Shown here: positions 22,943 to 58,920 of the stretch, one piece after another
How positions within the stretch are numbered: the stretch's first letter is position 1
Layout of the letters: the number at the start of each line of letters is the position of its first letter
DNA from: Candidatus Doudnabacteria bacterium RIFCSPHIGHO2_01_FULL_46_14
GTDB lineage: Bacteria > Patescibacteriota > Doudnabacteria > UBA920 > 2-01-FULL-46-14
NCBI GenBank assembly: GCA_001779925.1
Contig: MFEK01000016.1
Location: 78,504 to 142,503, forward strand
Direction of reading: 5' to 3'
Length of the DNA: 64,000 nucleotides
Translations under genes and position numbers: made by a program
Notes under the pieces: generated by a model
Database searches by the model: none
The model's input: the letters and a program-made list of their open reading frames with translations, nothing else
Told to the model about the DNA's origin: nothing

Positions 22943-22987
22943 AAACCCGGGCGAGAGCAATCTCATCGCCCGGTTTTTTATTTTGCT
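22943..22987 (+). terminator. Terminator module D, copy 1
   Basis: cccgggcgagagcaatctcatcgcccggttttttatttt. Nearly identical to 24676-24717. Confidence 0.65.
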
Positions 22988-23002
22988 AATTATCCACAGA
23001 GA

Positions 23003-23095
23003 CTCACTTACTTCACAGCCGTGAATGAAGTGAGTACTTGTTAAATTATGCTGAAGTACCCCACAGACTTCACGATCGTGAAGTCTGTGGGGTAC
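23003..23095. repeat. Two tandem palindromes of the TTCACGATCGTGAA-core family. The second is a perfect 40 bp palindrome.
   Basis: 23003-23034 is ctcacttacttcacagccgtgaatgaagtgag. 23056-23095 is gtaccccacagacttcacgatcgtgaagtctgtggggtac. Confidence 0.65.
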
Positions 23096-23096
23096 T

Positions 23097-23885
23097 TTAT
23101 TTTTCTTCTCCGGTGGACTCCCAAATAAAATAAAAAAGCGAGCGCATGGTCGCGGCGATCTCTTTTGAACGGATGATGAGTCCGATTGGCTCGCTATCTT
23201 TGCGCCATAAAGCAAAAGATGCATTGTCGCCATAAATGTAGCAGTCGAGTGGCAACGGAAATTTCTTTGAATCCAAAGTTTTTACTCGGCGCAAAAAGGC
23301 AGGATCAGTTTTTAAATTCATCTCCGCTGATCTTGCGACGCCGCTCAGCAAAATATCAATTGCAATTCCGTATTTAATTCTTCTGGGAATATAATAATTA
23401 CTCGCATACTCATCAATCGCAGGATGGATGTTTTCTAAACCTACAAAATTGAGCGTCGGCTTGCGCTGATGGAGATTGTCCAAATAGATTTTCTTTACGC
23501 CTTCTACGCCTTCATAAAAAACAATTTTCGGTTTCACAGAAGCAGTTGCTAGTAACATCCGCAGCTCTGGCAGACGTTTCTGTATTAGCTCCAGTTCAGC
23601 TGCTTTTTTCTCTACATAGCTTTCCGGATCTTCTGCCACTAGAAAGCGTCTTTTGCCAATCATGGTTTCTGAGAGAAGGCCTTTGCTGAATAAATTTGGT
23701 AGGAGTTTATAGAGTGTTGGCCTTTTTACCCCTGATTTATCTGCCAAGTGTTTAGGCAATGACCTGCCCAATTCCAAGGCTGATAAATAAATGGCTGATT
23801 CGGCCTTGGAAAGTCCTAGATTTTCTAATGTTTCTTCAATATGCATATTAAAGTGTTGCAGTTTATGACACTTTATATCATGCAT
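23097..23885 (-). CDS. TrmB-family HTH transcriptional regulator (paralogue 4)
   Basis: LGLSKAESAIYLSALELGRSLPKHLADKSGVKRPTLYKLL. Confidence 0.7.
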   Translation of the reverse strand: MHDIKCHKLQHFNMHIEETLENLGLSKAESAIYLSALELGRSLPKHLADKSGVKRPTLYKLLPNLFSKGLLSETMIGKRRFLVAEDPESYVEKKAAELELIQKRLPELRMLLATASVKPKIVFYEGVEGVKKIYLDNLHQRKPTLNFVGLENIHPAIDEYASNYYIPRRIKYGIAIDILLSGVARSAEMNLKTDPAFLRRVKTLDSKKFPLPLDCYIYGDNASFALWRKDSEPIGLIIRSKEIAATMRSLFYFIWESTGEEK

Positions 23886-24668: not shown

Positions 24669-24675
24669 AAATTAA

Positions 24676-24717
24676 ACCGAGGCGAGAGCAATCTCATCGC
24701 CCGGTTTTTTATTTGCC
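24676..24717 (+). terminator. Terminator module D, copy 2
   Basis: aaccgaggcgagagcaatctcatcgcccggttttttatttgcc. Confidence 0.65.
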
Positions 24718-24767
24718 TAAATGAACCACCCCCGCAGCAAGCTGACGGGGTATCATAAGCCTACGAT

Positions 24768-24806
24768 TCACCCCTCCCTAACCCTCCCCATCAAGGGGAG
24801 GGAAAA
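24768..24806. repeat. Family-A GC-rich hairpin element, copy A1
   Basis: tcacccctccctaaccctccccatcaaggggagggaaa. It is 38/39 nt identical to 58651-58690 and close to 47147-47186. Confidence 0.7.
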
Positions 24807-24858
24807 AGCAGGGAACCGCGGCAAGCCGCGGGGAATTAGACCCGGGGAGATTAAATAG

Positions 24859-24897
24859 TGACCCATAGGATTCACGATCGTGAAGTCTGTGAGTCAT
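24859..24897. repeat. TTCACGATCGTGAA-core palindrome with chimeric arms
   Basis: tgacccataggattcacgatcgtgaagtctgtgagtca. The left arm resembles the 29235 copy and the right arm the 23056 copy. Confidence 0.6.
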
Positions 24898-24945
24898 TTT
24901 ACGCTATGACCTCCCCCTAGCCCCTCCTCAATGAGGAGGGGAATT

Positions 24946-25809
24946 TCAAAACTGCCGGGATTTGCCGACGATCATTTTGATTTTTTGTTTCGCGACCTTT
25001 ATTATTGCGGGGGCTTTGGTGTAGACTTGCCCCTCAATAGAGAGCGGTAGTTTCCGCGGGCCAAGGACTTCGATCTGTTTGGCGTGCATGATGGTAGCGC
25101 CGGGCACATTGTCGAGACAGCCGGTAGCCAGCTCACGGCGGTAGCGGATAATTTGCCCGCTTGCAAGTTTGTTCAGTAATAAAATATCGAGAAGTTTGTC
25201 AGTGGGATCCCCGAGTTTGACCTTGCACCCGGCGTTATTGCGGCAATTGATAATCTGCGCGCCCAACACCTCTGAGGAAACCCGAAACGAATCATCAAGC
25301 TCAAGCTGTACCTCGAAAGGTGCTAGCCTCATGAATGTGCGCACGCTTGATAGGCCCATAAACCCGGGCTCGATCTGGGAAAACTGATTTTCTCCAAGCT
25401 CCACCTTGGATAAAAAATAATGCTCATTAATCTCACCCAAATCCAGGCTCGCTACCAAGCGACCTGCCAAAGTCTTTACTGAAAGCTCGATGTCAGGCGT
25501 GATCCCGAAAATCTGCCCTAACCTGGAATCTGAATCAAGCGAAATAAAGCCCACAGTAATGTCAGCGTGATGGCGCACCAAGGCATTGATAGCGCGGTTG
25601 AGCGTACTATCCGAGCCTACCACAATGATAGTTTTGGCCTCAAGGCCAATGGCTTGATCCACCAAAAGCTCCACGGTTCGGATCGAGGTCACCCGATAAG
25701 TCTCCCCTTCTATATGGTGTTCCGCGATCAGGTTCAGGAGGCGTCCTTGGATGCGCTCAAAATATTTGACTTCTTTGTCCTTTCCCGGATCAAAGATATA
25801 AAAATACAT
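24946..25809 (-). CDS. Diacylglycerol/lipid kinase catalytic-domain protein (YegS/BmrU-like)
   Basis: IIVVGSDSTLNRAINAL...GFISLDSD matches the DAGK_cat pattern. Confidence 0.65.
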   Translation of the reverse strand: MYFYIFDPGKDKEVKYFERIQGRLLNLIAEHHIEGETYRVTSIRTVELLVDQAIGLEAKTIIVVGSDSTLNRAINALVRHHADITVGFISLDSDSRLGQIFGITPDIELSVKTLAGRLVASLDLGEINEHYFLSKVELGENQFSQIEPGFMGLSSVRTFMRLAPFEVQLELDDSFRVSSEVLGAQIINCRNNAGCKVKLGDPTDKLLDILLLNKLASGQIIRYRRELATGCLDNVPGATIMHAKQIEVLGPRKLPLSIEGQVYTKAPAIIKVAKQKIKMIVGKSRQF

Positions 25810-25895
25810 GGCTTTACGAATTACTAATCTTTACGAATATACGAATCCGAATTCACATTCGTAAATTCGTACCAATTCGTTATTCGTAAAACTTT
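25810..25895. repeat. TACGAAT-element copy 3, palindromic
   Basis: gttttacgaataacgaattggtacgaatttacgaatg... read in the minus orientation. Fills the gap between the bactofilin stop and the kinase start. Confidence 0.6.
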
Positions 25896-29116: not shown

Positions 29117-29234
29117 GTCTCGAGAGCTCTCGGCTCCCCGGCAATTTCAGCCAAAGTAGGACCGACTATGCACGTCTCCTGCAGTTACACTTAATATCAT
29201 TGTAGACCTGTCATTTAAAACGTCAAGAAAAAAT

Positions 29235-29270
29235 AACCCATAGGCTTCACGATCGTGAAGCCTATGGGTT
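29235..29270. repeat. TTCACGATCGTGAA-core perfect 36 bp palindrome
   Basis: aacccataggcttcacgatcgtgaagcctatgggtt. Confidence 0.65.
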
Positions 29271-29349
29271 ATCGGATTTGAATACAAAAAACACAAGCCG
29301 CTGGACATCCATTTCTGGACGCCAGCGGCTAAGTTATCCATGCGAGCCC

Positions 29350-30180: not shown

Positions 30181-31968
30181 TTACTCTGAAACCAGCATCC
30201 CTGCCACTATCCAAAACAGCAGACTCCCCTGCTGAAGCGACAAAAAATAGTGGTCGAAAAAGCCGAGGAACAGGAAACCTGCGAATGCAGTGAGCAGAAT
30301 TAACTTCTCCTGTCCCCCGCCTGCCATCCGGCTTGAGCCGTCAGGCGATTGGCGGGCAGGCCTATCCCCCCAGCCTCTTTTAAGAATTCCGTAAAGCACC
30401 CATAGAAATGCTCCGAGCCCGAGAATCCCAGTTTCGGCAAGAAGCAGTAAATAAATATTATGGGCAGGCTGGTGTAGATGCGGCAGGAGTTTGCCATCCA
30501 TAAAAGCGCGCGGATATTTTTCAGCCATCCCGTTATCCGACGGGATCTGCGCTAATGCTACGACAAAATTGCGCAAACCCACCCCGAAAACCGGATTGTC
30601 TTTGATCTCCCTCCAAGCGGCAGAATCAAAAAGCTGGCGATCGCGAATGCTTTCGTCCAAGACCTCCCCCATCCTCGCTCCTTCCCGAGGAGGGGGGTAA
30701 ATACGGTCTTTAATTTGTTTACCAAATAGAAACCAATTGGTACTGAAAGCAATCAATAGTAATAAAATGATAACTAATAACCGGCCGGGGAGATAAAACT
30801 GATTTCCTGTTTCACGCTGAGCTGTTTCCATCCGCGCAAACACTCTGTTTCGGTGAAACCGGCTTAGAATAAACAAAATAACTAGCGCCAAAACAGTTAC
30901 CAGCCAAACTGTTCGAGAAAAGGTCAGGGTCAGGCCAGTGGAGATGAGGATGAGGGAAAGGGCAAGAAATATTTCACGCGAAATACTTTTCACCCTCTCC
31001 CGACCCCTACCCTCCCAGCCTCCGCCCGAGGCTTCGGCGGACACAGCAAGGGAGGGGAATTCCTCCCCCTTGAGGGGGGAGGATACAGGTGGGGGTGTAG
31101 TTTGCCGAGATTTAGCATAGATAAGCGAAATACTGGCAAGCAATCCAACAAAAAGGAAGGCTCCGAGCAAATTTGGATGAGGAAACGTGCCATATGGCCG
31201 AATTATAGGAATAAAATCCTTACCACCCGCCATTATTTCATCGAAACGAAGATATTTCACAGAAATAAGGCTGTGAGTATAAAATTCCGCGATTCCCTTC
31301 ATACCTGATGTAAAAAACGTTTCACCGAAATGTTGAAATCCGAGAGAATGTTGATCAAAGTACTGAAGAATGCCGATTACCGACTGAATAACCGCTCCCG
31401 TCACAATTAGCCAAAGTGTGGTCCGTATTTCTGTGAAACGTATATTTTGTTTCATGTAGAGAAAAACCAACAAAAATTCCGATATTTTCACAAAACCGTA
31501 GAAACTAAGCAACGGTTTCTGTGAAATGGTAATAGAAATGCCTAAGATAAGCCAAAAAACCATTGTGGATTTAATGAGGACATCTTGTGAAATACTGGTG
31601 TATATCTTGTGGAATAACCCCTCACAACCTCCCCTTACCTTAAGGGGAGGAGTCATCGTTGGTTTTTCCTCCCCCTTGAAATAAGGGGGATTGCCCGCCT
31701 CGCCGAGACGAGTCGAGGTCGGGAGGGGGTCATGTTTCTGTGAAACACAAATTTCATACAACCAGCTCAATATCAGAACACAAATCAATATATCTGTCAA
31801 GTATATAAAAATTGTGTGGTAAAAAATATGATAACCAAAGAAAAAACTCGTTTCTGTGAAATACGCACGGTTGATGTTAAAGGGCAAAAGTAGAACCAAA
31901 GCATAAAAAAACAGCTTGGAAAGAGGAACACTTCTTATTATTTGGTATACGCTCTTACCTTGAGGCAT
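30181..31968 (-). CDS. O-antigen ligase (Wzy_C) family membrane protein carrying three in-frame GC-rich palindromic insertions
   Basis: Wzy_C motif HLHQPAHNIYLLLLAETGILG. Polytopic. Intact 595 aa ORF despite inserts at about 30666-30699, 31001-31097 and 31620-31725. Confidence 0.65.
   Translation of the reverse strand: MPQGKSVYQIIRSVPLSKLFFYALVLLLPFNINRAYFTETSFFFGYHIFYHTIFIYLTDILICVLILSWLYEICVSQKHDPLPTSTRLGEAGNPPYFKGEEKPTMTPPLKVRGGCEGLFHKIYTSISQDVLIKSTMVFWLILGISITISQKPLLSFYGFVKISEFLLVFLYMKQNIRFTEIRTTLWLIVTGAVIQSVIGILQYFDQHSLGFQHFGETFFTSGMKGIAEFYTHSLISVKYLRFDEIMAGGKDFIPIIRPYGTFPHPNLLGAFLFVGLLASISLIYAKSRQTTPPPVSSPLKGEEFPSLAVSAEASGGGWEGRGRERVKSISREIFLALSLILISTGLTLTFSRTVWLVTVLALVILFILSRFHRNRVFARMETAQRETGNQFYLPGRLLVIILLLLIAFSTNWFLFGKQIKDRIYPPPREGARMGEVLDESIRDRQLFDSAAWREIKDNPVFGVGLRNFVVALAQIPSDNGMAEKYPRAFMDGKLLPHLHQPAHNIYLLLLAETGILGLGAFLWVLYGILKRGWGDRPARQSPDGSSRMAGGGQEKLILLTAFAGFLFLGFFDHYFLSLQQGSLLFWIVAGMLVSE
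30666..30699. repeat. GC-rich palindrome inside a CDS
   Basis: cccccatcctcgctccttcccgaggagggggg. Confidence 0.5.
31001..31097. repeat. Composite GC-rich element (family B1) inside a CDS
   Basis: ccgcccgaggcttcggcgg ... gaattcctcccccttgaggggggaggatacaggtgggggtg. Shares its ends with 58697-58795. Confidence 0.65.
31620..31725. repeat. Cluster of GC-rich hairpins inside a CDS
   Basis: cctccccttaccttaaggggagg; cccccttgaaataaggggg; cgggaggggg. Confidence 0.55.
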
Positions 31969-31982
31969 GATATAATATTTCT

Positions 31983-32657
31983 ATGGGGCTTCCAAAAAAC
32001 AAAGTTAAAATCGGGTGGTCGCCAGAATTTGCATATGCTATTGGGCTCCTAGTAACAGACGGTAGTTTATCAAAAGATGGCCGGCACATTAACTTTACCT
32101 CGAAAGACTTAGATCTCATAGAGACTTTCAAAAAATGCCTGCATTTGGAGAACAAGGTCGGAACAAAAACTGGTTATAGAAGAATAAAAAATATTTTTCA
32201 AATACAATTTGGTGATGTAAATTTCTATCGGTTTTTACTCTCAATAGGATTGATGCCGAATAAAACCAAAATCCTTAAGAAAATAGCCATCCCCGAGGAA
32301 TACTTCTTTGATTTTTTGAGAGGACATTTTGATGGGGATGGATCATTTAATTCCTACTGGGACCCACGATGGAAATCCAGTTTTATGTTTTATATGAACT
32401 TTGTTTCCGCCAGTGAAAATCATATAAAGTGGCTTAGAAATCGCATTTTTGAAACACTGCAAATACGCGGCCATGTCAGCAAAGCTCGACTCAGCAGTTG
32501 CTATCAGTTAAGGTACGCAAAAAAAGAATCATTAAAATTGCTGGATAAGCTCTACTATAGAAAAGTTGTCTGTTTGCATCGAAAATACTTGAAAATTCGT
32601 GATGCTTTATTTATAATTAGCAAGCTTCTAAAAAAGAGCAATGCCCGGGTGGTGTAA
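31983..32657 (+). CDS. Single-chain (double-motif) LAGLIDADG homing endonuclease
   Basis: Two LAGLIDADG-like motifs, LLVTDGSLSKDG and LRGHFDGDGSF. TATAAT sits 6 nt before the ATG. The 3' end overlaps the first ~15 nt of tRNA-Leu. Confidence 0.7.
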   Translation: MGLPKNKVKIGWSPEFAYAIGLLVTDGSLSKDGRHINFTSKDLDLIETFKKCLHLENKVGTKTGYRRIKNIFQIQFGDVNFYRFLLSIGLMPNKTKILKKIAIPEEYFFDFLRGHFDGDGSFNSYWDPRWKSSFMFYMNFVSASENHIKWLRNRIFETLQIRGHVSKARLSSCYQLRYAKKESLKLLDKLYYRKVVCLHRKYLKIRDALFIISKLLKKSNARVV

Positions 32658-32728
32658 TGGTAAACACGCTGGCTTGAGGTGCCAGTGGGGGAAACCCTGT
32701 GGAGGTTCAAGTCCTCTCCCGGGCACCA
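32643..32728 (+). tRNA. tRNA-Leu(GAG)
   Basis: Acceptor GCCCGGG/CCCGGGC, anticodon loop TTGAGGT, long variable arm, CCA encoded. Length 86 nt. Confidence 0.8.
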
Positions 32729-33705: not shown

Positions 33706-34842
33706 ATGCAGATTGAATACGACATTGAAAAAGACAAATGGAATCAGTTCGTCGCGGACAACTCCAGCCCGGCTTCTTTCCTTCAATCCTGGCAGTGGGG
33801 CGAGTTTCAAAAATCTTTGGGATTGAAAATTCACCGGCTTGGAGTTGCAGGGGAGTCAGGTGAGTTGATTGCGGTTGCGCAAGCAATTGTCCGGCCCCTA
33901 CATCTAGGGAAAACATATTTGGAAATAACAAAAGGACCGGTCGCAAAGCGACTGGCGACTGGCTATTTGCAATTAGACTTGATAATTGAGGAGCTAAAGA
34001 GGATTGGTGAAAAAGAAAAATCCATAATGATTAGAATTAATCCCCCCTATGAAGATTTAAAACTATTCGCTAATCGCTATTCGCTAATCGCCCCCGCAAT
34101 TCTCTTGCGGCAAACCGAACCCAACGACACTGTCCTTGTTGACCTCACTAAATCCGAAGACGAATTGCTCTCGAGCATGCATGAAAAATCCCGATACAAT
34201 ATCCGACTGGCTATAAAAAAAGGCGTAAGGGTTGCGGAAAAAACGACGGACCGGTCGGCTTTTGATAAATTTTTAGAATTGATTGAAGAAACTGCCAAAC
34301 GCGATGGCATCACAGTCTGGCCGCGGGAAAGATTTGAAAAATTTCGGCAGCAGTTCATGATTCATAACTCACCCCAACCCTCCCTTACCTTAAGGGAGGG
34401 AGTTCCCCCTCTTAATTTAAGAGAGGGCGGGGGTGAGTTATTGAATTCCGATCAACCTCGCGCCATCCTCCTCACAGGCTCGTTTGAAGGCAAAATTTTG
34501 GCGGCTGCCATTGTCATGCTGTTCGGCGACAGCGGGACTTATCTGTATGCCGCGTCATCTGCAGAACAAAGAAATGCTAATGTTCCCAGCCTTGTACTAT
34601 GGGAAGCGATTCGCGCCGCAAAAATGGCTGGCAAAAAAAATTATGATATGTGGGGTATTGCGCCAGCCGGCAGTGATGAATCCCATTCCTGGGCTGGCAT
34701 CACGAGATTTAAAACCCGCTACATCAAGGCGGGGGAGACAGGGATGGAGAAACACTACACCGGTACATGGGATTTGATTTTAGATAAAACTTATCACAAT
34801 GTCTTCAAACTCGGAAAAATTTTAAAAAAAATTATAAAATAA
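33706..34842 (+). CDS. FemAB-family peptidyl/aminoacyl transferase (peptidoglycan bridge formation-like) with an in-frame repeat insertion
   Basis: FemAB N-terminal pattern KWNQFV...SFLQSWQWGEFQ. A GC-rich element at 34371-34440 encodes NSPQPSLTLREGVPPLNLREGGGEL. Confidence 0.55.
   Translation: MQIEYDIEKDKWNQFVADNSSPASFLQSWQWGEFQKSLGLKIHRLGVAGESGELIAVAQAIVRPLHLGKTYLEITKGPVAKRLATGYLQLDLIIEELKRIGEKEKSIMIRINPPYEDLKLFANRYSLIAPAILLRQTEPNDTVLVDLTKSEDELLSSMHEKSRYNIRLAIKKGVRVAEKTTDRSAFDKFLELIEETAKRDGITVWPRERFEKFRQQFMIHNSPQPSLTLREGVPPLNLREGGGELLNSDQPRAILLTGSFEGKILAAAIVMLFGDSGTYLYAASSAEQRNANVPSLVLWEAIRAAKMAGKKNYDMWGIAPAGSDESHSWAGITRFKTRYIKAGETGMEKHYTGTWDLILDKTYHNVFKLGKILKKIIK
34371..34440. repeat. GC-rich hairpin element inside a CDS
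   Basis: accccaaccctcccttaccttaagggagggag ... ccccctcttaatttaagagagggcggggg. Confidence 0.6.
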
Positions 34843-37122: not shown

Positions 37123-37146
37123 TATCCCTCCCCTTAGGCTAAGGGG
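37123..37146. repeat. GC-rich hairpin cctccccttaggctaaggggagg overlapping the 3' end of the DUF559 gene
   Basis: Same family as 31627 and 34374. It encodes the C-terminal residues TPPSLPLA. Confidence 0.55.
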
Positions 37147-37508
37147 AGGCTAGGAGGAGTTGTTTCCATTCTGAGCTTATCCGTAACTCCTTCTATGTTT
37201 TCAATGACGTCGTTATTCCAAAATCTTAAGACTTTAATTCTTCTATTTTTCAGAAATTCGGATCTTTTCTCATCATAAACCATATTTGTAGTTTCGGCAT
37301 GTTGTCCGCCATCCAGCTCAATTGCCAATTTCATGATCGGGCAATAGAAATCAAGTATGTAAGAACCCACACTATACTGCCTGAAAAATTTCAACCCCTC
37401 AAACTGCTTGTTTCTCAAAAGTTTCCATAATCTTTTTTCTACTTCAGTTTGGTTTCTGCGCAGGCCACGGCGGTGGTTTATTGTTTCAGAATTGTTATAT
37501 AAATACAA
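37134..37508 (-). CDS. DUF559 / Vsr-like endonuclease-fold protein
   Basis: EKRLWKLLRNKQFEGLKFFRQY...ILDFYCP...ELDGGQHAE...DEKRSEFLKNRRIKVLRFWNNDV. Confidence 0.7.
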   Translation of the reverse strand: MYLYNNSETINHRRGLRRNQTEVEKRLWKLLRNKQFEGLKFFRQYSVGSYILDFYCPIMKLAIELDGGQHAETTNMVYDEKRSEFLKNRRIKVLRFWNNDVIENIEGVTDKLRMETTPPSLPLA

Positions 37509-37554
37509 TTCTTAACTCCCCTAACCCCTCTTAGCTTAAGAGGGGAATAATACT

Positions 37555-37629
37555 TGGAGGCCAGGACGGGAATCGAACCCGTGCATCGCGGTTTTGCAGA
37601 CCGCAGCGTTACCACTTCGCCACCTGGCC
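37555..37629 (-). tRNA. tRNA-Cys(GCA)
   Basis: Acceptor GGCCAGG, discriminator U73, anticodon stem GCGGT/ACCGC, loop CTGCAAA, CCA encoded. Confidence 0.8.
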
Positions 37630-37642
37630 ATAGAGACATTAT

Positions 37643-37733
37643 AACCCCTCCTAGCGAGGAGGGGTAAGGGGAGGTCTGGGGTTCTGTTCCACGACCCCCT
37701 CTATCTCCCCCTCATGAGGGGGAGAATCAAACT
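37643..37733. repeat. Three consecutive GC-rich palindromes downstream of rpsA
   Basis: cccctcctagcgaggagggg; ggggaggtctgggg...ccccctctatctcccc; tccccctcatgagggggaga. Confidence 0.6.
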
Positions 37734-39679: not shown

Positions 39680-40420
39680 TTAAGTCGCCTGCAGGGCGCC
39701 GAGCCAGGCCAGCTCAAAAATCGCTCTTTGCGTCTCAGCAATCTTTTGGCTTTCGATAATCACGCCGATTTTTTCCGGAAAAGAGAAGATTGCGACTTTG
39801 TCATTGTAAATATTGATCTCATTTTGAAAAACGAATTTAGCGGCAGAGACTAAAAGCAGATGCCGCATTTCTTGTTTGTCGCGGCGTGCATATTCTTGGC
39901 TGTCGTGAGTAGCAGGCACAATGCCGCGCATAAAAATCTTGCGCTTCACCCGCTCTCGCACATAGTCCTTTATGAATTCCTGTGAGACTGCTTCCCACAT
40001 CTCCGTGATCGCGCCGTAAGCCAGCACCACGCCTTTGCTTTCGAGCGTATCCCAGTACATAGCTTTCAACCCCTCAACGCCTTCGTAAAATCTGACGCGT
40101 GGTTTTTTGCCGCCAGTTTGAAATAGGAGCTTAAGTTCTGGTAAAGCTTCGAGAAACGCATGCTGCCGCGCTTTCAAAAGCGCCAAAACATTCTCTGGAT
40201 CCTCCGCCAGAAAATAACGCTTCTTTTTTTTAGTGACCATAGAAAACACACCCTTCTTTTCGAGGGAAGCGACAATGTCATAAACTGTCGGCCGCTTGAG
40301 ATCCGCCTGCTCTGCCAGCCTTTGAATGGAAGCCTCACCAAGCTCAATACCTGCCAGATAAACCTGGGCTTCTTTTTCCGAAAGCCCAGAGCTAGTTAAT
40401 AGAGAATGTAAATTGGACAT
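39680..40420 (-). CDS. TrmB-family HTH transcriptional regulator (paralogue 5)
   Basis: SGLSEKEAQVYLAGIELGEASIQRLAEQADLKRPTVYDIVASLEKKG. Confidence 0.7.
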   Translation of the reverse strand: MSNLHSLLTSSGLSEKEAQVYLAGIELGEASIQRLAEQADLKRPTVYDIVASLEKKGVFSMVTKKKKRYFLAEDPENVLALLKARQHAFLEALPELKLLFQTGGKKPRVRFYEGVEGLKAMYWDTLESKGVVLAYGAITEMWEAVSQEFIKDYVRERVKRKIFMRGIVPATHDSQEYARRDKQEMRHLLLVSAAKFVFQNEINIYNDKVAIFSFPEKIGVIIESQKIAETQRAIFELAWLGALQAT

Positions 40421-42403: not shown

Positions 42404-43027
42404 ATGGTAATATCCTGGTTTGGACTGTCGAGTTTCAAGATTTCCTCAGGCCCGCTAACGCTCATCACTGACCCTTTTTCCAAAAGCGCCGGGCCAACGC
42501 CCCCGCGGGGGCAGACTGACATAGTCATTATTTCTAACCCTTCTTCTGATCTCTACAATAACCGCGAGGCAGTAGGGGATGAGAAGACTTTTGTGGTGGA
42601 CAGCCCCGGCGAATACGACATAAAGGGACTGTTTATCAGGGGTGTAGCGGCAGCCGGGGCTGCGATTTATGCCATACGCATGGAAGACATGCGCTTGGGG
42701 TTTTTAGGTTCGCTTAAACAAAAAGAGCTTTCTGACCAGCAGCTTGAAGACCTTGGTGATATTGATGTTTTGTTTGTACCGGTTGGCGGGAAAATCGTCT
42801 GCGATGCTGAGGAGGCCGTAACCATCGTCAATCAGATTGAACCGCGATTTGTGGTGCCCATGCACTATGCTCAGCCCGGCCTAAAAATCAGCCTCGATAA
42901 GGTTGACCAGTTTCTCAAAGAAATCGGAGGCGCTAAAGCCGCACCCCAGGAAAAACTAACTATCAAGAAATCCAACATCCTGGAAGGAGAAAATACCGAA
43001 GTCGTAATCTTGGAGCCTCTGAGGTAG
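42404..43027 (+). CDS. MBL-fold metal-dependent hydrolase (UPF0173-like)
   Basis: Start moved to ATG 42404, 6 nt after a TATAAT at 42393-98. DIDVLFVPVGG...VVPMHY. Confidence 0.55.
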   Translation: MVISWFGLSSFKISSGPLTLITDPFSKSAGPTPPRGQTDIVIISNPSSDLYNNREAVGDEKTFVVDSPGEYDIKGLFIRGVAAAGAAIYAIRMEDMRLGFLGSLKQKELSDQQLEDLGDIDVLFVPVGGKIVCDAEEAVTIVNQIEPRFVVPMHYAQPGLKISLDKVDQFLKEIGGAKAAPQEKLTIKKSNILEGENTEVVILEPLR

Positions 43028-43060
43028 TTTTACGAATAACGAATTAGTACGAATATACGA
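43028..43060. repeat. TACGAAT-element copy 4. The start codon of the next gene is embedded in it.
   Basis: gttttacgaataacgaattagtacgaatatacgaATGgag. Confidence 0.6.
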
Positions 43061-43276
43061 ATGGAGTTATTAAAGAGATTACAAGCTAGGCCCGAGAAAG
43101 AAAAAATCCGCATCCTGCGAATCTCTGTAGCTGTCACTGTCATTCTTATCCTCGTCATCTGGGTGCTGACGCTGAAATATAGAACCATTGAGCAAGGGGA
43201 TACCACGAAATTTCAAAAAATTTGGAATAATGTTAGAGAACTCAAGTCAAAATTTAAAAATCAAAATGGAAAATGA
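43061..43276 (+). CDS. Small membrane protein, hypothetical
   Basis: One TM helix. Confidence 0.4.
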   Translation: MELLKRLQARPEKEKIRILRISVAVTVILILVIWVLTLKYRTIEQGDTTKFQKIWNNVRELKSKFKNQNGK

Positions 43277-47045: not shown

Positions 47046-47146
47046 GATTCCTCCTCTGCACCCCGCCAAAAAAGCTTGACGATGGTGACAGGGGAGTGTA
47101 TATTATTCTTATTGAGTGGCCAAGAGCACCATAGGGTGATAACTGC

Positions 47147-47186
47147 CACCCCTCCCTCAGTCCCTCCCCATCAAGGGGAGGGAAGA
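47147..47186. repeat. Family-A GC-rich hairpin element, copy A2, just upstream of TrmB paralogue 6
   Basis: ccacccctccctcagtccctccccatcaaggggagggaag. Confidence 0.65.
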
Positions 47187-47195
47187 AAGATTGGA

Positions 47196-47939
47196 ATGTA
47201 CGCAGAAACATTAGAAAATATCGGGCTGTCGCCTAACGAGGCCAAAATCTACGAAACCCTGCTCGCCAGCGGGGAAATTGGCGTATCTGAGATTTCGTTG
47301 AAATCCAACGTGCACCGTAGAAATGTCTATGACGCATTGAATCGCCTCATTGAAAAAGGCGTGGTGTTTCGTATCTTCCAAAAAAATGAGCATCAATTTC
47401 GAGCGGTGACGCCGGATAAACTGGCAGAAATTCTTGCAGAAAAACAGCAAAGTTTAGATCGCATATTACCGGGAATGCGCAAGCTTTACGAAACAAAACC
47501 GATTGAGGAAGCGGCTTTCATTTACAAAGGCAAAGAAGGCTATAAAAATTATCTGCGCGATATGGCACGCGTGGCCGAGGATACATATTTTTTGGGGGCC
47601 AAGGGACTGTGGTTTACGCCTTGGGTGGAGAAACATTATTTGCTGGATTTTCAGGACGCCATGCATCGCAAAAAAAAGAAATACTACACTCTCTACGATC
47701 CGCGGGTCAAAGAAAAACTGCCCGATGCAGTAAAAAACGTCAAAGGCGAATATAAATTTCTGCCGACCAAATATGCCACGCCAGGCGTAACTGACGTCTT
47801 TGGCGATTATGTCGTGACTTTTACCAGTGTGGACATTGGCAATTTTGGCGAAGACGGAAAAATATTTGTTATGATACATCCAGAACTGGCAGAAACCTAC
47901 CGCACATGGTTTCGACTCATTTGGGATTTACTGAAATAA
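47196..47939 (+). CDS. TrmB-family HTH transcriptional regulator (paralogue 6)
   Basis: Start set at ATG 47196 (MYAETLENIGLSPNEAKIYETLLASGEIGVSEIS). The ORF-track N-terminal extension covers the repeat element. Confidence 0.65.
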   Translation: MYAETLENIGLSPNEAKIYETLLASGEIGVSEISLKSNVHRRNVYDALNRLIEKGVVFRIFQKNEHQFRAVTPDKLAEILAEKQQSLDRILPGMRKLYETKPIEEAAFIYKGKEGYKNYLRDMARVAEDTYFLGAKGLWFTPWVEKHYLLDFQDAMHRKKKKYYTLYDPRVKEKLPDAVKNVKGEYKFLPTKYATPGVTDVFGDYVVTFTSVDIGNFGEDGKIFVMIHPELAETYRTWFRLIWDLLK

Positions 47940-49844: not shown

Positions 49845-49888
49845 CCTTACCCTCCTCCCCCCTTCACGACCAGTCAGACTGGTCAGGG
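49845..49888 (+). terminator. GC-rich hairpin plus T8 terminator
   Basis: ccttaccctcctccccccttcacgaccagtcagactggtcagggggaggatttttttt. Confidence 0.6.
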
Positions 49889-49918
49889 GGAGGATTTTTT
49901 TTATGTTATGATTCACAT

Positions 49919-52206: not shown

Positions 52207-52707
52207 ATGAGTTCTAACATAATCCTAGGCATTGATCCCGGCACAGCCACAACAGGATATGGAGTCATTGATTCCTCCCCCTCGAGGGGAGAGGGCAGGG
52301 TGGGCGTGATGAAATCAATCGAATTCGGCTGTATCCGGACTTCAAAAGACAATTCTCTGCCAGAAAGGCTTGAGGAAATTTACAATGACCTGCAAAAGCT
52401 CATCAAAAAATACCAGCCGGATAAAATCGCTGTGGAATCGGTCTATTTTTATAACAATGTCAAAACCGCGATCGCTGTCGCACAGGCGCGGGGCGTGGTT
52501 CTCCTATGCGCCAGGCAAAATAAAACTCCGGTTTTGGAATTCACGCCGCTCCAGGTAAAAAATAACCTGACAAACTACGGAAAAGCGGAAAAAAAACAGG
52601 TTCAGCAAATGGTCAAAACCCTACTGAACCTGAAATCAATCCCCAAACCCGACGACGCGGCCGACGCCCTCGCCCTCGCCATCTGCGGGGCAAATAAAAA
52701 TTTATGA
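52207..52707 (+). CDS. ruvC: Holliday junction resolvase RuvC with a short GC-rich in-frame insertion near the N-terminus
   Basis: ILGIDPGTATTGYGVI...CIRT and DAADALALAICGA. The extra DSSPSRGEGRVGV segment is encoded by the hairpin cctccccctcgaggggagagg at 52274-52297. Confidence 0.85.
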   Translation: MSSNIILGIDPGTATTGYGVIDSSPSRGEGRVGVMKSIEFGCIRTSKDNSLPERLEEIYNDLQKLIKKYQPDKIAVESVYFYNNVKTAIAVAQARGVVLLCARQNKTPVLEFTPLQVKNNLTNYGKAEKKQVQQMVKTLLNLKSIPKPDDAADALALAICGANKNL

Positions 52708-54716: not shown

Positions 54717-57533
54717 ATGTCTAACCATTTCCGAGGTTGGAAAAAATCCTCTACAGCGCCATTCTTGCACGGTCCGGAGAGAAAAGTTTCTTCCTGGCTC
54801 CGCAAGATTTTTGCATTTGTCGGAAGCTCGCTGAAAAAATTCTGGAAGGTGAAAGGGATCTTCAAAAAACTCGTCATTGCCGGAATCTTTGCCGGCATAG
54901 TCGGGTTCATTTTTTTCGGCTTAGCATTTGCCTATTACGCTTTTAATTTGCCCGATCCGAACAACCTGATTGTCCGCGAAGTCCCGGAATCAACAAAAAT
55001 TTTAGACCGCAACGGGAAGCTCCTCTATGAACTCTACGACGAAGAAAAACGGACTCTGGTAAAATTGGAGGAGATCCCTCAATACGTCAAAGATGCCACC
55101 GTCGCCATTGAGGACAAAAATTTTTACAATCACAAAGGCATCAGCCTCACCGGGATTATCCGAGCCATACTCGTCAATATTCTGCGCGGCAGTAAGAGTC
55201 AGGGTGGATCCACCATCACCCAGCAATTTGTCCGCAATTCAGTTCTCACCCTCGAAAAAAGCTGGAGCCGCAAGATCAAAGAAATTGCCCTGTCTATTCA
55301 GATTGAACGGCGCTATTCCAAAAACGAAATCCTCCAGTTGTACCTTAACGAAATCCCTTACGGCTCAAACGCTTATGGTGTGGAAGCGGCCGCCCAAACT
55401 TTTTTTGGCAAAAGCGTAAAAGATATCAGCTTGATTGAAGCGGCCTATCTCGCTGCAATGCCGCAGGCCCCTTCCCGCTACTCCCCGTTTGGTCCGAATC
55501 GCGAGGCCTTGGACGGCCGGGCACGCACCGTGCTCGCAGCCATGGCTGACCAGGGGTACATCACAAAACAACAAAAAGACTCTGCCCTCAAAGAAAAAGT
55601 GGAATTTCACAGTCTGGGCAAGGGCATTCTGGCGCCGCACTTTGTCCTCTATGTTCAGGATTTGCTTGCTAAAACCTATGGCGACATCAGTCTACGGCGC
55701 GACGGACTGAAGGTTACCACAACTCTGGATCTCGATTTGCAAACCGCCGGGGAAAAAATAGTGGCCGAACAGGTTGCTGCCTCAGAAAAAAAATATAACG
55801 CCACCAATGCCGCGCTCGTAGCAATTGATCCGAAAAACGGACAGATTTTAGCGATGGTCGGCTCCAAAGATTATTTCAACAAAGAACATGACGGCGCTGT
55901 GAACGTAGCACTGCGCGCGCGGCAGCCTGGATCTTCATTCAAGCCATATGTATACGCCACGGCTTTCAAAAAAGGCATGAACCCTGCCACCATGCTCATG
56001 GATGTTACTACTAATTTCGGAGAGTTTGGCGGCAAGTCGTACACGCCTGGAAATTACGACGGGAAAAACTACGGCCCGGTTTCTGTACGCCGCGCCTTGC
56101 AAGGCTCCCTAAACATTCCTGCGGTGAAAACTTTGATTTTAACCGGCATTGAAGATTCCATTGAGACGGCAGAGAGTTTCGGTATTACCACTCTCAAAGA
56201 CCGCTCGCGTTTTGGCCCGGCTCTGGTACTGGGAGGCGCTGAGGTCAAGCTTTTGGAACACGCGGCCGCATATGGCGTGTTTGCGGCCGGCGGGATAAAA
56301 CATGACACCGCAGCCATCCTCAAAATCGAGGACAAATCAGGAAAAATTCTCGAGGAATACAAAGATTCGCGCGGGCAGGAAGCCCTTGATCCGCAAATCG
56401 CTTACCAGATCACAAACGTTCTTTCTGATAACCCTTCGCGTGTTTATATCTTTGGACAAAACAATCATCTGCAACTGCCAGGTCGGCCGGTAGCCGCCAA
56501 AACCGGAACGACCCAGGAATACCGCGATGCCTGGACCATGGGTTATACACCCTCTCTTGTCGCCGGTGTGTGGATGGGCAATAACGACAACACGCCAATG
56601 GCGGGAGGCGCTTCGGGTTCCCTTGTTGCAGCCGCAATCTGGCAAGAATTCATGAAAAAAGCCCTAGAAGGAAAACCGGTTGAAGATTTCGCGCGTCCCG
56701 AAGGGATAACAGAAATTGCTGTGGACAGCTTGTCCGGAAAATTGCCAACTGCATTTACCACGGAAACCAAAACCGAAATTTTTGCCAGCTTCAATATTCC
56801 ACAAGAATATGACGACGCACACATCTCCGCTACAGTGAATGGTTCGACTCAAATTTATACAGTACTACATTCGGAACGTCCTGAGGATCCGGCCTGGGAG
56901 GACCCAGTGATTCTCTGGGCACTGGCCAATGGCTACAACTATCCGCCCGACGGTAGTTTTGAAGAACGACCCCAGGCTAGCCAAATCGAAATTAACCTCA
57001 AAACAGCGGACAAGATCAGCGCCATGCCCTGGACAGTGTGGGCAGAGATTAAATCAGAGGAGGCGATCCGCGAGGTGCGATTTCTTTTGAATTCGCGCTT
57101 TTTAGGAATAGATAGCGAAGCGCCGTACGAATTGACGAGCGCGGAAAACCATGTGGACGGCACGCACCAATTAACTACTGAGGTTACCACTGCGGGCGGA
57201 CGAACTGCGCAAAAATCGAAAAACCTGGTTTTCTCAACGGGAAAAAATCTAATAATGATTGAGCCGCAGAACAATCAAGAATTAAAACTGCCGGCCAATC
57301 TGGCCGTAGAAACGAGCTTGAATGTTGATCCCTCGTCTGTTGAATTTGTACGGCGATCAGCAAACGGAAAAGAAATCAGAATTCCCGGCTCAGTTTCTAA
57401 TCGCAAAATCGCTGGTATTTTTCAATATACTCTAAACTGGGCCATGTCAGACAAGCCGAACCCGGGGAGTTATATAATCTACGCAAAAATAAGCGGCAAT
57501 AAAAGCAACGAGGTAACAGTCAAAATACAGTAG
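54717..57533 (+). CDS. Class A penicillin-binding protein (bifunctional transglycosylase/transpeptidase, PBP1A-like)
   Basis: GT51 motifs EDKNFYNHKGI and RGSKSQGGSTITQQ. Transpeptidase motifs SSFKP and KTGT. Confidence 0.9.
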   Translation: MSNHFRGWKKSSTAPFLHGPERKVSSWLRKIFAFVGSSLKKFWKVKGIFKKLVIAGIFAGIVGFIFFGLAFAYYAFNLPDPNNLIVREVPESTKILDRNGKLLYELYDEEKRTLVKLEEIPQYVKDATVAIEDKNFYNHKGISLTGIIRAILVNILRGSKSQGGSTITQQFVRNSVLTLEKSWSRKIKEIALSIQIERRYSKNEILQLYLNEIPYGSNAYGVEAAAQTFFGKSVKDISLIEAAYLAAMPQAPSRYSPFGPNREALDGRARTVLAAMADQGYITKQQKDSALKEKVEFHSLGKGILAPHFVLYVQDLLAKTYGDISLRRDGLKVTTTLDLDLQTAGEKIVAEQVAASEKKYNATNAALVAIDPKNGQILAMVGSKDYFNKEHDGAVNVALRARQPGSSFKPYVYATAFKKGMNPATMLMDVTTNFGEFGGKSYTPGNYDGKNYGPVSVRRALQGSLNIPAVKTLILTGIEDSIETAESFGITTLKDRSRFGPALVLGGAEVKLLEHAAAYGVFAAGGIKHDTAAILKIEDKSGKILEEYKDSRGQEALDPQIAYQITNVLSDNPSRVYIFGQNNHLQLPGRPVAAKTGTTQEYRDAWTMGYTPSLVAGVWMGNNDNTPMAGGASGSLVAAAIWQEFMKKALEGKPVEDFARPEGITEIAVDSLSGKLPTAFTTETKTEIFASFNIPQEYDDAHISATVNGSTQIYTVLHSERPEDPAWEDPVILWALANGYNYPPDGSFEERPQASQIEINLKTADKISAMPWTVWAEIKSEEAIREVRFLLNSRFLGIDSEAPYELTSAENHVDGTHQLTTEVTTAGGRTAQKSKNLVFSTGKNLIMIEPQNNQELKLPANLAVETSLNVDPSSVEFVRRSANGKEIRIPGSVSNRKIAGIFQYTLNWAMSDKPNPGSYIIYAKISGNKSNEVTVKIQ

Positions 57534-57562
57534 TTTTACGAATAACGAATAATTACGAATGT
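57534..57562. repeat. TACGAAT-element copy 5. The start codon of the next gene lies inside it.
   Basis: gttttacgaataacgaataattacgaATGtacgaattt. Confidence 0.6.
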
Positions 57563-58920
57563 ACGAATTTACCATAGCCATCAGTCTGTTATTATTCCTT
57601 CTTGCAAGCCTATACCGGCGGGAGTGGGGCGTATATTTGATTATTCTGCTTCTACCAACATATCAGATTCGCTTTCAAGTGCTCGGTATTCCCGCAACCT
57701 TTTTAGAAGGAATGATACTGCTGCTTGCCTGTCTGTCATTGCGGGCCATTTTAATAAATGACGAACCAATCTCTCTCAAAAACAGATTGCTTCATTTCAT
57801 TCATAATGACAAATTTACTTCTGTCTTTATTTTCCTTTTCCTCCTGGCCGCCGGCGTCTCTGTTTTTTTGGCTCCGGACATGACCCGCGCTGCCGGGATT
57901 TTCAAAGCCTTTTTTTTTGAAGCCATACTTTTTTATTTTCTGGTGCGGCTCATCATTGATTCGCGAGAAAAATTGGAAAAACTTTTCCAGAGCCTGGCTG
58001 TCCTGGTTTTGTACCTTTCGATTTTCGGGCTTTACCAGTTTTTGACTCTTTCTGGATTACCCCATTCCTGGTGGGGCGTAGAAATCGCGGAGCGCCGCAT
58101 TGTCTCCCTGGTCAATCATCCCAATGCGCTGGCCCTGCTCCTAGGACCTATCCTGGCCATGCTGGCATTCTTACCAAAAAATAAACTAAAATACGCAGCT
58201 ATACTTTTTGGGTTACCGGCCTTCTATCTCACATTGTCACGCGCCGGCTGGTTGGCGCTTGTGGCTGTGATTGTCGGCATTGGGTTGTTTACACAGTACA
58301 AGAAAAAAATTATCATACTGGCTTTGTGTGCAGTCATCGCCATCCTCGCGATCCCTTACTCTCGCACAAAACTTGCAAATCTTGCTTCTGGTCATGACCC
58401 AACCCAGGAAAACCGTTACTTACTGTGGAGCGCGGGCATAGACCTTATCAAAAAACATCCCCTGGCCGGGGTGGGGTTAATGGGTTTTCGCGAGCATTTC
58501 AAAAACTACCCTATCGGCCCGGATCGTGTCATACAAAACTATCCGCATAATTTCTTTTTGAATTTCTGGGTGGAAACCGGGCTCTTAGGGTTGGTAAGTA
58601 TGATCAGTCTGCTCATGCTTTTTTACAGAAAAATTTATCAACTTTACAAATCACCCCTCCCTAACCCTCCCCCTCAAGGGGAGGGAAATATAAAAGAGAA
58701 TTCCTCCCCCTTGCCGGGGTCCTCCAAAACTGTACTCGGTTTTGGGGTGGGCTTGAGGGGGGAGGACAAAGGTGGGGGTGGAAAAAATTATGCCCTCGCC
58801 GTCGTGGCTGCCATGGCCATGATCGTGGTTCACTCCCTCGTGGACGTATCCTATTTCAAAAACGACCTAGCAGTGCTGTTCTGGCTCATCTACGCCCTGC
58901 CGTTTATTGTTTCGGTTTGA
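57559..58920 (+). CDS. O-antigen ligase (Wzy_C) family membrane protein with a ~150 bp in-frame repeat insertion
   Basis: Wzy_C motif NYPHNFFLNFWVETGLLG. The segment 58651-58795 encodes SPLPNPPPQGEGNIKENSSPLPGSSKTVLGFGVGLRGEDKGGGGKNY. Confidence 0.6.
   Translation: MYEFTIAISLLLFLLASLYRREWGVYLIILLLPTYQIRFQVLGIPATFLEGMILLLACLSLRAILINDEPISLKNRLLHFIHNDKFTSVFIFLFLLAAGVSVFLAPDMTRAAGIFKAFFFEAILFYFLVRLIIDSREKLEKLFQSLAVLVLYLSIFGLYQFLTLSGLPHSWWGVEIAERRIVSLVNHPNALALLLGPILAMLAFLPKNKLKYAAILFGLPAFYLTLSRAGWLALVAVIVGIGLFTQYKKKIIILALCAVIAILAIPYSRTKLANLASGHDPTQENRYLLWSAGIDLIKKHPLAGVGLMGFREHFKNYPIGPDRVIQNYPHNFFLNFWVETGLLGLVSMISLLMLFYRKIYQLYKSPLPNPPPQGEGNIKENSSPLPGSSKTVLGFGVGLRGEDKGGGGKNYALAVVAAMAMIVVHSLVDVSYFKNDLAVLFWLIYALPFIVSV
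58651..58795. repeat. Family-A copy A3 plus family-B copy B2, which carries a nested 43 bp hairpin insertion, all inside a CDS
   Basis: tcacccctccctaaccctccccctcaaggggagggaaata ... gaattcctcccccttg[ccggggtcctccaaaactgtactcggttttggggtgggct]tgaggggggaggacaaaggtgggggtgg. Confidence 0.7.

Follow-up and report, generated by a model that had tools for sequence, protein, structure and literature searches.

An inverted pair of putative intrastrand triplex repeats, one carrying a nested hairpin, within a Wzy_C gene of Candidatus Doudnabacteria

A 64 kb stretch of contig MFEK01000016.1 from Candidatus Doudnabacteria bacterium RIFCSPHIGHO2_01_FULL_46_14 (the window; all element coordinates are window positions) carries on its plus strand a gene for a membrane protein of the Wzy_C (O-antigen ligase) family, with a pair of short G/C-rich repeats embedded in frame. 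We consider it likely that these are an inverted pair of intrastrand triplex-type repeats, termed A and B, occupying a disordered loop of the Wzy_C protein, and that a secondary hairpin was acquired in the loop of repeat B. The doublet and the hairpin were inserted successively. The features of this locus, and of a second locus with which it is compared, are the following.

57559-58920, plus strand: host gene, encoding a Wzy_C (O-antigen ligase family) membrane protein of 453 amino acids.
58652-58780: two triplex-motif repeats, A followed by B, inverted relative to each other to form a doublet that encodes Wzy_C residues 365-408 (SPLPNPPPQGEGNIKENSSPLPGSSKTVLGFGVGLRGEDKGGGG).
58652-58685: repeat A ("Family A"), read on the minus strand as pyrimidine (Y) stem, purine (R) stem and mirror G segment, a perfect mirror at 8 of 8 positions.
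58652-58661: third segment of repeat A, CACCCCTCCC, followed by TAA.
58665-58672: C-rich stem of repeat A, CCCTCCCC, followed by the loop CTCAA.
58678-58685: G-rich stem of repeat A, GGGGAGGG.
58701-58710, plus strand: Y stem of repeat B, TTCCTCCCCC.
58714-58755, plus strand: nested insert of 42 nt in loop 1 of repeat B, with CTTG at both sides, encoding PGSSKTVLGFGVGL.
58724-58745, plus strand: core of the nested hairpin, CCAAAAC, loop TGTACTCG, GTTTTGG.
58757-58766, plus strand: R stem of repeat B, GGGGGGAGGA, the complement of 58701-58710.
58771-58780, plus strand: third segment of repeat B, GGTGGGGGTG, separated from the R stem by the loop CAAA (4 nt); a mirror of that stem in which T faces A, and a candidate reverse-Hoogsteen strand.
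31060-31097, plus strand: uninterrupted repeat B (TTCCTCCCCC, TTGA, GGGGGGAGGA, TACA, GGTGGGGGTG), a mirror at 9 of 9 positions, translated on the minus strand as TPPPVSSPLKGEEF.
30991-31057: inverted partner of the 31 kb B copy, whose own loop holds a different nested hairpin (31017-31049) of the CCGCC..GGCGG type.
30181-31968, minus strand: gene containing the 31 kb doublet and encoding a second Wzy_C paralog of 595 amino acids (Wzy_C-1), with more repeat insertions at 31614-31692 and about 30290-30350.

Pairwise alignment bears out the earlier note on this DNA, which had proposed that the 31 kb and 58.7 kb loci are copies of one repeat family. The left end, GAATTCCTCCCCCTTG, occurs exactly at both 31057-31072 and 58698-58713, where 0.04 matches would be expected at up to 2 mismatches. 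The right end, GGGGGGAGGA-N-A-N-A-GGTGGGGGTG, is found at 31074-31097 and 58757-58780, with 0.00 matches expected; chance matches were estimated from dinucleotide shuffles of the window (100 shuffles for the right end). In a MAFFT alignment of the two copies (A1) they align end to end, with one clean 42-column gap separating the shared ends. The extra internal hairpin described for the 58.7 kb copy is indeed a discrete insert, measuring 42 nt (58714-58755, 14 codons) rather than 43. Similarly, the repeat that had been placed at 58697-58795 is present, with the element proper confined to 58701-58780 and with 58697-58700 and 58781-58795 as flank. Both copies lie in coding sequence, as had been stated: the open reading frames (ORFs) at 57559-58920 (plus) and 30181-31968 (minus) are members of the Wzy_C family, and the conserved C-terminal helices of both are encoded downstream of the repeats. 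The insert sits within the 4-nt hairpin loop of repeat B itself (TTGA in the 31 kb copy), between TTG and A, and ends in CTTG, the same CTTG that directly precedes it. The peptide stretch SSPLPGSSKTVLGFGVGLR belongs to the predicted translation across the insert. No second match to the 42-nt insert was detected in the window, even when up to 3 mismatches were allowed.

Homologs of the host protein come from Candidatus Doudnabacteria and Patescibacteria, placing the host among bacteria of the candidate phyla radiation (CPR). The exact Wzy_C protein was found on 9 contigs from several groundwater metagenomes, and the nested hairpin is identical in 5 independent assemblies. Rifle-aquifer samples JGI 3300002502 and 3300025323 contain the organism of the window, and the organism of loci L063 and L072 comes from ERZ27256875 / JGI 3300031965. 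Because the rnpA-yidD-yidC-khpB and dnaA-dnaN genes adjoin the Wzy_C gene, the window lies at the replication origin. In an alignment of 27 Wzy_C orthologs (A2), many run straight from the helix ...KKI..L.. to ..YALA and thus present an empty site (P0003, P0005, P0007, P0008, P0016 and P0019 are among them); the window protein has 44 extra residues (365-408) relative to these. The existence of so many orthologs with an empty site argues that the whole 129-nt doublet is an insertion. Its presence is patchy across a neighbor-joining (NJ) tree of the Wzy_C orthologs, a rough tree built on conserved columns without support values. The 44 residues encoded by the doublet are predicted to form a disordered loop: AlphaFold2 models residues 369-406 with no secondary structure and a predicted local distance difference test score (pLDDT) below 50, between helices 332-364 and 407-428. 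The sequence of one homolog of this protein, P0013 (a homolog of the window's second Wzy_C protein along the stretch, 57559-58920), ends exactly at the doublet insertion site (...FTKKIYKII), which suggests that assemblies break at these repeats.

Further copies of these repeats occur elsewhere in the window.

24762-24802 and 47142-47185: sister copies of repeat A.
34364-34441: further inverted doublet of the same kind, in FemAB.
49853-49894, plus strand: two B-type stems, TCCTCCCCC and GGGGGAGGA, separated by a 24-nt loop that contains another hairpin, GACCAGTC-A-GACTGGTC; intergenic, followed by T8.
52272-52308, plus strand: third B-type copy (TTCCTCCCCC, TCGA, GGGGAGAGGG, CA, GGGTGGGCGTG), in frame in RuvC (52207-52707), encoding DSSPSRGEGRVGV in the beta1-beta2 hairpin.

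The copy within RuvC, uninterrupted and more diverged than the other two B copies, adds a net 7 residues to the beta1-beta2 turn by comparison with the RuvC of a related locus (L001) and with Escherichia coli RuvC (1hjr). At the 31 kb site the B copy is absent from the nearest orthologs, P0122, P0123 and P0125 (alignment A5). A nearly base-for-base copy of the 31 kb doublet, lacking the nested piece, lies in another loop of the orthologous gene at locus L071, which shows that the doublet is a unit turning up at new sites. The nested piece of the 31 kb partner repeat is present at the orthologous site in L072 (alignment A6). Copies are found inside two Wzy_C genes, RuvC, FemAB and possibly a TrmB gene. 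These DNA units occur in either orientation, in more than one frame, and also between genes.

A scan of the window for G/C-rich hairpins, defined as a C-rich stem, a short loop and a G-rich stem, identified about 18 such units in the 64 kb, roughly half of them inside genes. In all of these the pyrimidine stem comes first, and in most a third block lies on one side. The segment at 58652-58685 has the architecture of repeat B in the opposite orientation, so that 58652-58780 constitutes an inverted doublet with ends CACCCC...GGGGTG. The purine-motif triple helix sets G against G and either A or T against A, with the strands antiparallel. The third segments follow this rule in that on the G-rich strand they mirror the purine stem, as in GGGGAGGG-TTA-GGGAGGGG, AGGAGGGG-TAA-GGGGAGG and GGGGGAGA-T-AGAGGGGG; in the B type, GGGGGAGGA-TACA-GGTGGGGG, T stands opposite A and GGTGGGGG is the mirror of GGGGGAGG. 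Among 44 Y-loop-R hairpins with a G-rich follower in the window and related Doudnabacteria loci, the third segment is a perfect mirror in 28 and a perfect direct repeat in 7. When stems were paired with the third segments of other elements in 1000 permutations, perfect mirrors averaged 10.3 and never exceeded 19. Subfamilies with different stems covary three ways, as in CCCCCTCT/TCTCCCCC/GGGGGAGA compared to CCTCCCC/CCCCTCC/GGAGGGG.

These properties place repeat B, as judged from its sequence pattern, among the intrastrand triplex motifs, the class that includes potential intrastrand triplex (PIT) elements, BoxC and TM_ECO. The Y and R stems TTCCTCCCCC / GGGGGGAGGA are complementary in both copies (58701-58766 and 31060-31083) and fall within the 6-15 nt stem length of the class, and the third G-rich block would form an antiparallel mirror with G.GC and A.AT/T.AT triads. 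The loops are of the expected 1-6 nt in the 31 kb copy (TTGA, TACA) and in the 52 kb copy. Loop 2 at 58.7 kb (CAAA) is likewise of this size, whereas loop 1 there is extended to 46 nt by the nested hairpin. Folding was computed for Watson-Crick pairs only and the third strand was judged from sequence. In the predicted fold, for single-stranded DNA or RNA, the inner hairpin stacks coaxially on the outer stem TTCCTCCCCC/GGGGGGAGGA and GGTGGGGGTG stays unpaired, where it would be available as a third strand. We also considered, and rejected, G-quadruplex formation as the reason for the third segment: it suits the subfamilies with four tracts of three or more G but not types such as GGGGGAGA..AGAGGGGG, and it does not predict the mirrored placement of A and T.

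Orthologous sites in related genomes indicate how the 58.7 kb copy came by its long loop. The comparison loci were L001 (ortholog P0006), L002 (P0011), L063 (P0002) and L066 (P0004), the last a sister of L063. At L001 the site holds repeat A followed by TTCCTCCCCC-TTAA-GGGGGGAGGA-TAAA-GGTGGGGGTG, that is, the B arms of the window with an intact 4-nt loop and no hairpin. At L063, positions 2822-2858 read CCGGGGTCCCCCAAAACAGTACTCGGTTTTGGGGTGG and are identical to the window hairpin at 35 of 37 positions; a single 37-nt core, GGGGTCC[TC]CCAAAAC[TA]GTACTCGGTTTTGGGGTGG, covers both variants. The repeat that hosts the hairpin in L063 is at the B position and belongs to a different subfamily (TCTCCCCCTC / GAGGGGGAGA / GAGGGGG). 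L066 has a repeat of this same subfamily with the loop GT, making L063 exactly 42 nt longer. In L002 the doublet holds a different insert of 30 nt (TCTCCCTTCGAGAGATCCCCCGTAGGGGGA), again placed after CCCCCTTG, and unrelated hairpins occupy similar loops at 31017-31049 and 49862-49885 in the window and in several instances in L065. Uninterrupted copies are those at 31060-31097 and 52272-52308 and in L001, L066 and L071. Because short loops are the norm and each hairpin copy has a hairpin-free counterpart (L001 for the window, L066 for L063), the long form is derived, by insertion and not by deletion.

The hairpin is read in different frames at the two sites, as PGSSKTVLGFGVGL in the window and as RTGVPQNSTRFWGG in L063, and yet is nearly identical in sequence. 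The four-fold degenerate sites of the host genes, by comparison, are saturated, with only 33% identity between the window and L063 and 33-37% between the window and the other genomes. This argues for conservation at the level of DNA rather than protein. The B arms of the window and L001 are identical at 30 of 30 positions. With four-fold sites saturated, neither this identity nor the 95% identity of the hairpin is explained by neutral retention; each would reflect either DNA-level constraint on the structure or recent arrival from conserved multi-copy sources. The hairpin is flanked by the direct repeats CTTG/CTTG in the window and TCG/TCG in L063. We considered a consistent 3-nt target-site duplication and dropped it as unproven: the element ends implied by the two copies differ by 2 nt, so that a clean duplication cannot be claimed.

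The earlier note had interpreted the insert as an element within an element and had suggested that it might be found independently. The polarity of a nested insertion stands; the independence of the inserted hairpin does not, since no copy outside a triplex-motif loop was found. About 78 kb of same-genome DNA (the window plus about 14 kb of extra flanks, L004 and L067), about 25 kb of the L063 genome (L063, L072 and L073) and scans of sequence collections, the last of which are weak evidence, yielded no free copy of the 42-nt insert. A genome-collection scan with the exact stems CCTCCAAAAC-N8-GTTTTGGGG gave 11 matches, none from Doudnabacteria, and a strict hairpin pattern gave none in metagenome contigs. 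Both are weak negatives, because neither returned the source contig, even though the window sequence itself fits both patterns, and because both required CCTCC and so excluded the CCCCC variant of L063. A relaxed pattern gave 44 matches in metagenome contigs, all chance-like (terminators and ciliate telomeres), and a pattern covering both hairpin variants gave none in viral contigs. Six-frame hairpin peptides compared to the protein database shared words with 260 candidates, none with E <= 10, the matches being so short as to be unscorable in this way. A regular-expression search for these peptides in 120 Wzy_C homologs found only P0001 and P0002, and blastn-short with both variants found no further copy in 71 fetched sequences (0.5 Mb). 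The mobility of the hairpin is thus not demonstrated. Six of the 11 genome-scan matches are from one unrelated Anaerolineaceae metagenome-assembled genome (MAG), whose own triplex-motif family has AAAAC/GTTTT as the inner stem. This MAG, CALDSL01 (Chloroflexi; L009, L011, L013, L016, L017 and L018), contains the multi-copy family GGGGGGAGGA...CTCCCTCCAAAAC-loop-GTTTTGGGGGGAG-C-GGGAGGGGGG, whose inner stem and loop resemble the nested hairpin described here at 24 of 27 positions.

We propose the following model for these repeats. In each unit a homopyrimidine stem is separated by a short loop from its homopurine complement, and a second loop of 2-4 nt leads to a third, G-rich mirror segment that could fold back antiparallel onto the hairpin of the single strand through G.GC, A.AT and T.AT triads. 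The repeats would be DNA-level elements, non-coding by origin, that are spread or replaced within and between related genomes and that persist in genes only where an in-frame, stop-free insertion hits a tolerant loop. The three blocks would be constrained by the folded single-stranded form (hairpin plus third strand), perhaps transient at replication or repair, leaving the loop as the only free and exposed part, which would be why secondary hairpins accumulate there. The 42-nt hairpin would extend the stem coaxially and leave the third segment free. The repeats would be selfish or neutral. For the origin of the hairpin we tentatively prefer insertion of a small multi-copy hairpin into the single-stranded loop during replication or repair, the main alternative being one old event preserved by DNA-level constraint.

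Several observations weigh against parts of this model. Triplex formation is here a prediction from sequence, and Holder et al. saw no stable TM_ECO triplex in vivo (PMC4666352). In some subfamilies the G-rich strand could adopt a G-quadruplex as an alternative structure. The hairpin was found only at this one Wzy_C position in the own-genome, L063-genome and collection searches described above, and the ends implied by its CTTG and TCG repeats lie 2 nt apart when the window is compared to L063. Lastly, Pfam searches of the approximately 68 ORFs of the window identified no transposase, Y1/RAYT protein (RAYT, REP-associated tyrosine transposase; see below) or integrase.

How the hairpin reached two genomes can be explained in more than one way. 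It may tentatively be viewed as a minimal mobile element, resembling a miniature inverted-repeat transposable element (MITE) of only about 37-39 nt (two inverted arms plus a loop), that prefers triplex-motif loops and entered the window and L063 lineages independently. The same core is found in two subfamilies and two frames, each time with a counterpart free of it and each time as an addition of 42 nt; its high identity, set against saturated neutral sites, points either to recent arrival or to a conserved source present in many copies; both copies are bounded by short direct repeats; and similar loops carry other hairpins (31017-31049, 49862-49885, L002 and L065). Nevertheless, both known copies are at the same gene position, no non-orthologous copy was seen in about 100 kb of two genomes or in the collection scans, the implied termini are inconsistent by 2 nt, and no candidate enzyme was identified.

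A rather doubtful alternative is that one ancient hairpin insertion preceded the split between the window and L063 lineages and was kept either by DNA-level constraint or because its deletion disrupts the gene, with precise losses in L066 and P0009 and later replacement of the arms by gene conversion. In keeping with such a history, both copies are at the orthologous position and are exactly 42 nt long, and the window and P0002 fall in one NJ clade. The B arms of the window match its own 31 kb copy, as within-genome homogenization would produce, and the CCGCC hairpin nested in the 31 kb doublet is also present at the orthologous site of the L063-type genome (L072), showing that nested pieces can be old. 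The scheme nonetheless needs conversion of both arms and the third segment that spared the loop, several precise losses, compensating changes to account for the different reading frames, and 95% identity maintained where neutral sites are saturated.

A more elaborate scenario, which we regard as improbable, is that the hairpin (37-39 nt) is a parasite of a parasite that targets triplex-motif loops, the motifs themselves being selected as real three-stranded DNA and perhaps recognized by a trans-acting nuclease, for which the DUF559 endonuclease described below is a candidate. Were this true, the covariation of the blocks would provide the first evidence from evolution that intrastrand triplexes both arise and have consequences in vivo.

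Little credence can be given to protein-level selection for a Pro/Gly-rich flexible linker in the Wzy_C loop, with the DNA repeats as a by-product of low-complexity coding. The encoded peptides are rich in P, S, G and E and fall in the disordered loop, but the DNA units do not keep to one orientation or frame and also occur between genes, their conservation tracks base-pairing and mirror rules rather than amino acids, and the segment is wholly absent from many orthologs. Equally implausible is a functional RNA structure in the mRNA or an embedded small RNA, such as a terminator, attenuator or ribozyme. The predicted RNA fold is strong (-48.2 kcal/mol, z = -3.1); against this, Rfam searches of the element at permissive E-values found no family near threshold (best score 21 bits, gathering score 52), a terminator scan of the element found no terminator-like tail, copies are transcribed in either orientation relative to genes, and RNA reportedly does not adopt purine-motif triplexes (PMC4666352). 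Scarcely credible at all is the reverse polarity, with the long form original and the short copies (31 kb, 52 kb, L001) as deletion derivatives, for although hairpin and triplex repeats are prone to deletion (PMC4666352), the loop is 2-5 nt long in almost every member of the family across five genomes, the long loops hold unrelated inserts, and the class as described has 3-6-nt loops.

The Wzy_C genes contain other embedded repeats. In the C-terminal region of Wzy_C-1, positions 30290-30350 hold a further nested hairpin insert (CCTGCCCGCC...CGGCTCAAGCCG...GGCGGGGG, encoding ARQSPDGSSRMAGGG; A5 columns 700-720) that is common to P0122 and absent from other orthologs. The palindrome TTTCACGTGAAA, read as FSRE/VSRE or FHVK, appears in several loops of the Wzy_C-1 orthologs (A5) and lies directly after the doublet both at the 31 kb site of the window (30972-30983), where it is a single imperfect copy, the only one in the window, and in L071 (about 650-665). 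A repeat of the 'tgtcattgcgagg...' type is located at 20552-20582, and a decayed, translated copy, reading SLRAILINDEPISLKNRLLHFIHNDK, is found at 57730-57810 in the N-terminal loop of the Wzy_C protein that carries the A-B doublet (residues about 60-85). Orthologs at this N-terminal loop read SLRG..RSNP...RLLHFVRNDK, representing another repeat family embedded in frame.

Triplex-motif repeats are also clustered near a nuclease gene, with four copies within 600 nt (37127-37725). A DUF559/Vsr-like endonuclease gene (PF04480; 37134-37508, minus strand) is bracketed exactly by two inverted copies (37127-37545), one of which supplies the last 8 codons and stop of the gene while the other abuts its start codon; the next pair brackets tRNA-Cys (37555-37629). 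This bracketing may be a hint of a trans-acting nuclease, or may simply mark a hotspot. Two further palindrome families are dispersed through the window. AT-rich palindromes of TACGAAT/ATTCGTA units (15467-15541, 16848-16907, 25808-25894, 43024-43062 and 57530-57568) are intergenic and lie just upstream of genes, and may be operator or promoter-associated sites. Long palindromes centered on CACGATCGTG form another dispersed hairpin family (23051-23103, 24853-24900 and 29225-29272), two of them near terminator-like repeats at 22943-22989 and 24674-24720. An ORF with a LAGLIDADG domain (PF14528; 31983-32657) has the Wzy_C-1 gene as its immediate neighbor on one side and tRNA-Leu/tRNA-Val on the other, and at its 3' end it overlaps tRNA-Leu (32643-32728). 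The 64 kb encode six paralogous TrmB-family regulators (1504-2244, 11795-12574, 19755-20507, 23097-23885, 39680-40420 and 47076-47939). The true start of the last may lie downstream, because a triplex-motif repeat occupies its first 37 codons.

Triplex repeats have been known since 2000 and have been described as intergenic, with no in vivo role shown; here they are found inside housekeeping genes and as recurring doublets. The covariation of their blocks offers comparative, evolutionary support for a constraint on the third strand, beyond what biophysics alone had given, and the nested hairpins mark loop 1 as the unconstrained, insertion-prone part. In the literature searched we found no report of triplex-motif repeats inside coding sequences, of their abundance in a CPR lineage, of three-way covariation between subfamilies and orthologous sites, or of recurrent nested hairpins in loop 1. 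The 31 kb and 58.7 kb copies, together with L001, L002, L063 and L066, provide a natural series with and without the insert for studies of structure formation, polymerase stalling and repair. The repeats also enlarge CPR proteins by disordered loops rich in P and G and are a probable cause of assembly breaks, which matters for CPR annotation and assembly.

Several known systems resemble these repeats in part. Rickettsia palindromic elements (RPEs) are palindromes of about 100-150 bp that are inserted in frame into unrelated housekeeping genes at fold-compatible positions (Ogata et al. 2000, as summarized in PMC10969869). The repeats described here share with them the in-frame insertion of palindromes into unrelated genes at structurally permissive sites, a functional resemblance only: the units are 35-40 nt long and the doublets about 80-130 nt, kinship in sequence is not expected, the host belongs to the CPR and not to the rickettsiae, and RPEs have not been described as triplex motifs. 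In systems of repetitive extragenic palindromic (REP) sequences, REPINs (REP doublets forming hairpins) and RAYTs, short hairpin repeats occur as singlets and inverted doublets (Bertels and Rainey 2011, PMC3116915). The inverted doublets at 58652-58780, 30991-31097 and 34364-34441, and the recurrence of one at a new site (L071 compared to the 31 kb copy), are REPIN-like. No RAYT (Y1 HUH transposase) was found among the approximately 68 ORFs of the window. REPs are extragenic, the repeats here lack a GTAG head, and their mirror segment has no REP counterpart.

Nesting itself has parallels. The insertion sequences IS1397 and ISKpn1 are full elements that insert into hairpin loops of REPs and bacterial interspersed mosaic elements (BIMEs), landing in a resident palindromic repeat. 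Very small nested repeats of cyanobacteria (small dispersed repeats, SDR; 21-27 nt), which Elhai and co-workers are said to have described in 2008, reportedly have many free copies. In both cases, as here, a second element lies inside a resident palindromic repeat; unlike both, the insert here is a 37-42-nt hairpin with no free copy found. As to MITEs, the ends of the doublet (CACCCC...GGGGTG) are inverted, and the hairpin is flanked by CTTG/CTTG and TCG/TCG with implied termini 2 nt apart.

The closest counterparts are the intrastrand triplex motifs, namely PIT elements, BoxC and TM_ECO (Hoyne and Maher 2000, as cited by Holder et al., Nucleic Acids Research 2015, PMC4666352). TM_ECO follows the pattern CCCTCNCCC-N3-6-GGGNGAGGG-N3-GGGNGAGGG, and the G-strand and C-strand forms of triplex motifs are designated class II and class IV, respectively. 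They are abundant in enterobacteria and cyanobacteria, are always intergenic in E. coli K-12, occur at times as inverted tandem pairs and have no link to transposons; they form a stable triplex in vitro, with no stable triplex detected in vivo, and are associated with local sequence instability (PMC4666352). The strict TM_ECO consensus has no match in the window, and L063 (9280), L065 (935) and L002 (3702) carry the TM_ECO wording GGGAGAGG...GGTGAGGG. In this class, as in the repeats described here, a C-rich stem is followed after 3-6 nt by a G-rich stem and after about 3 nt more by a second G-rich block, with the same G.GC and A/T.AT geometry. Further shared features are stems of 8-10 nt, many dispersed copies without strand bias, some inverted tandem pairs, no associated transposase (here among the window ORFs), and local instability. 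The repeats described here differ in that about half of the copies are translated in frame, one of them in RuvC, in a CPR host, and in that loop 1 repeatedly holds nested hairpins and reaches 24-46 nt, beyond the 1-6 nt of the search definition. The repeat class is already known from PIT, BoxC and TM_ECO; its location inside genes and its nested form are unusual.

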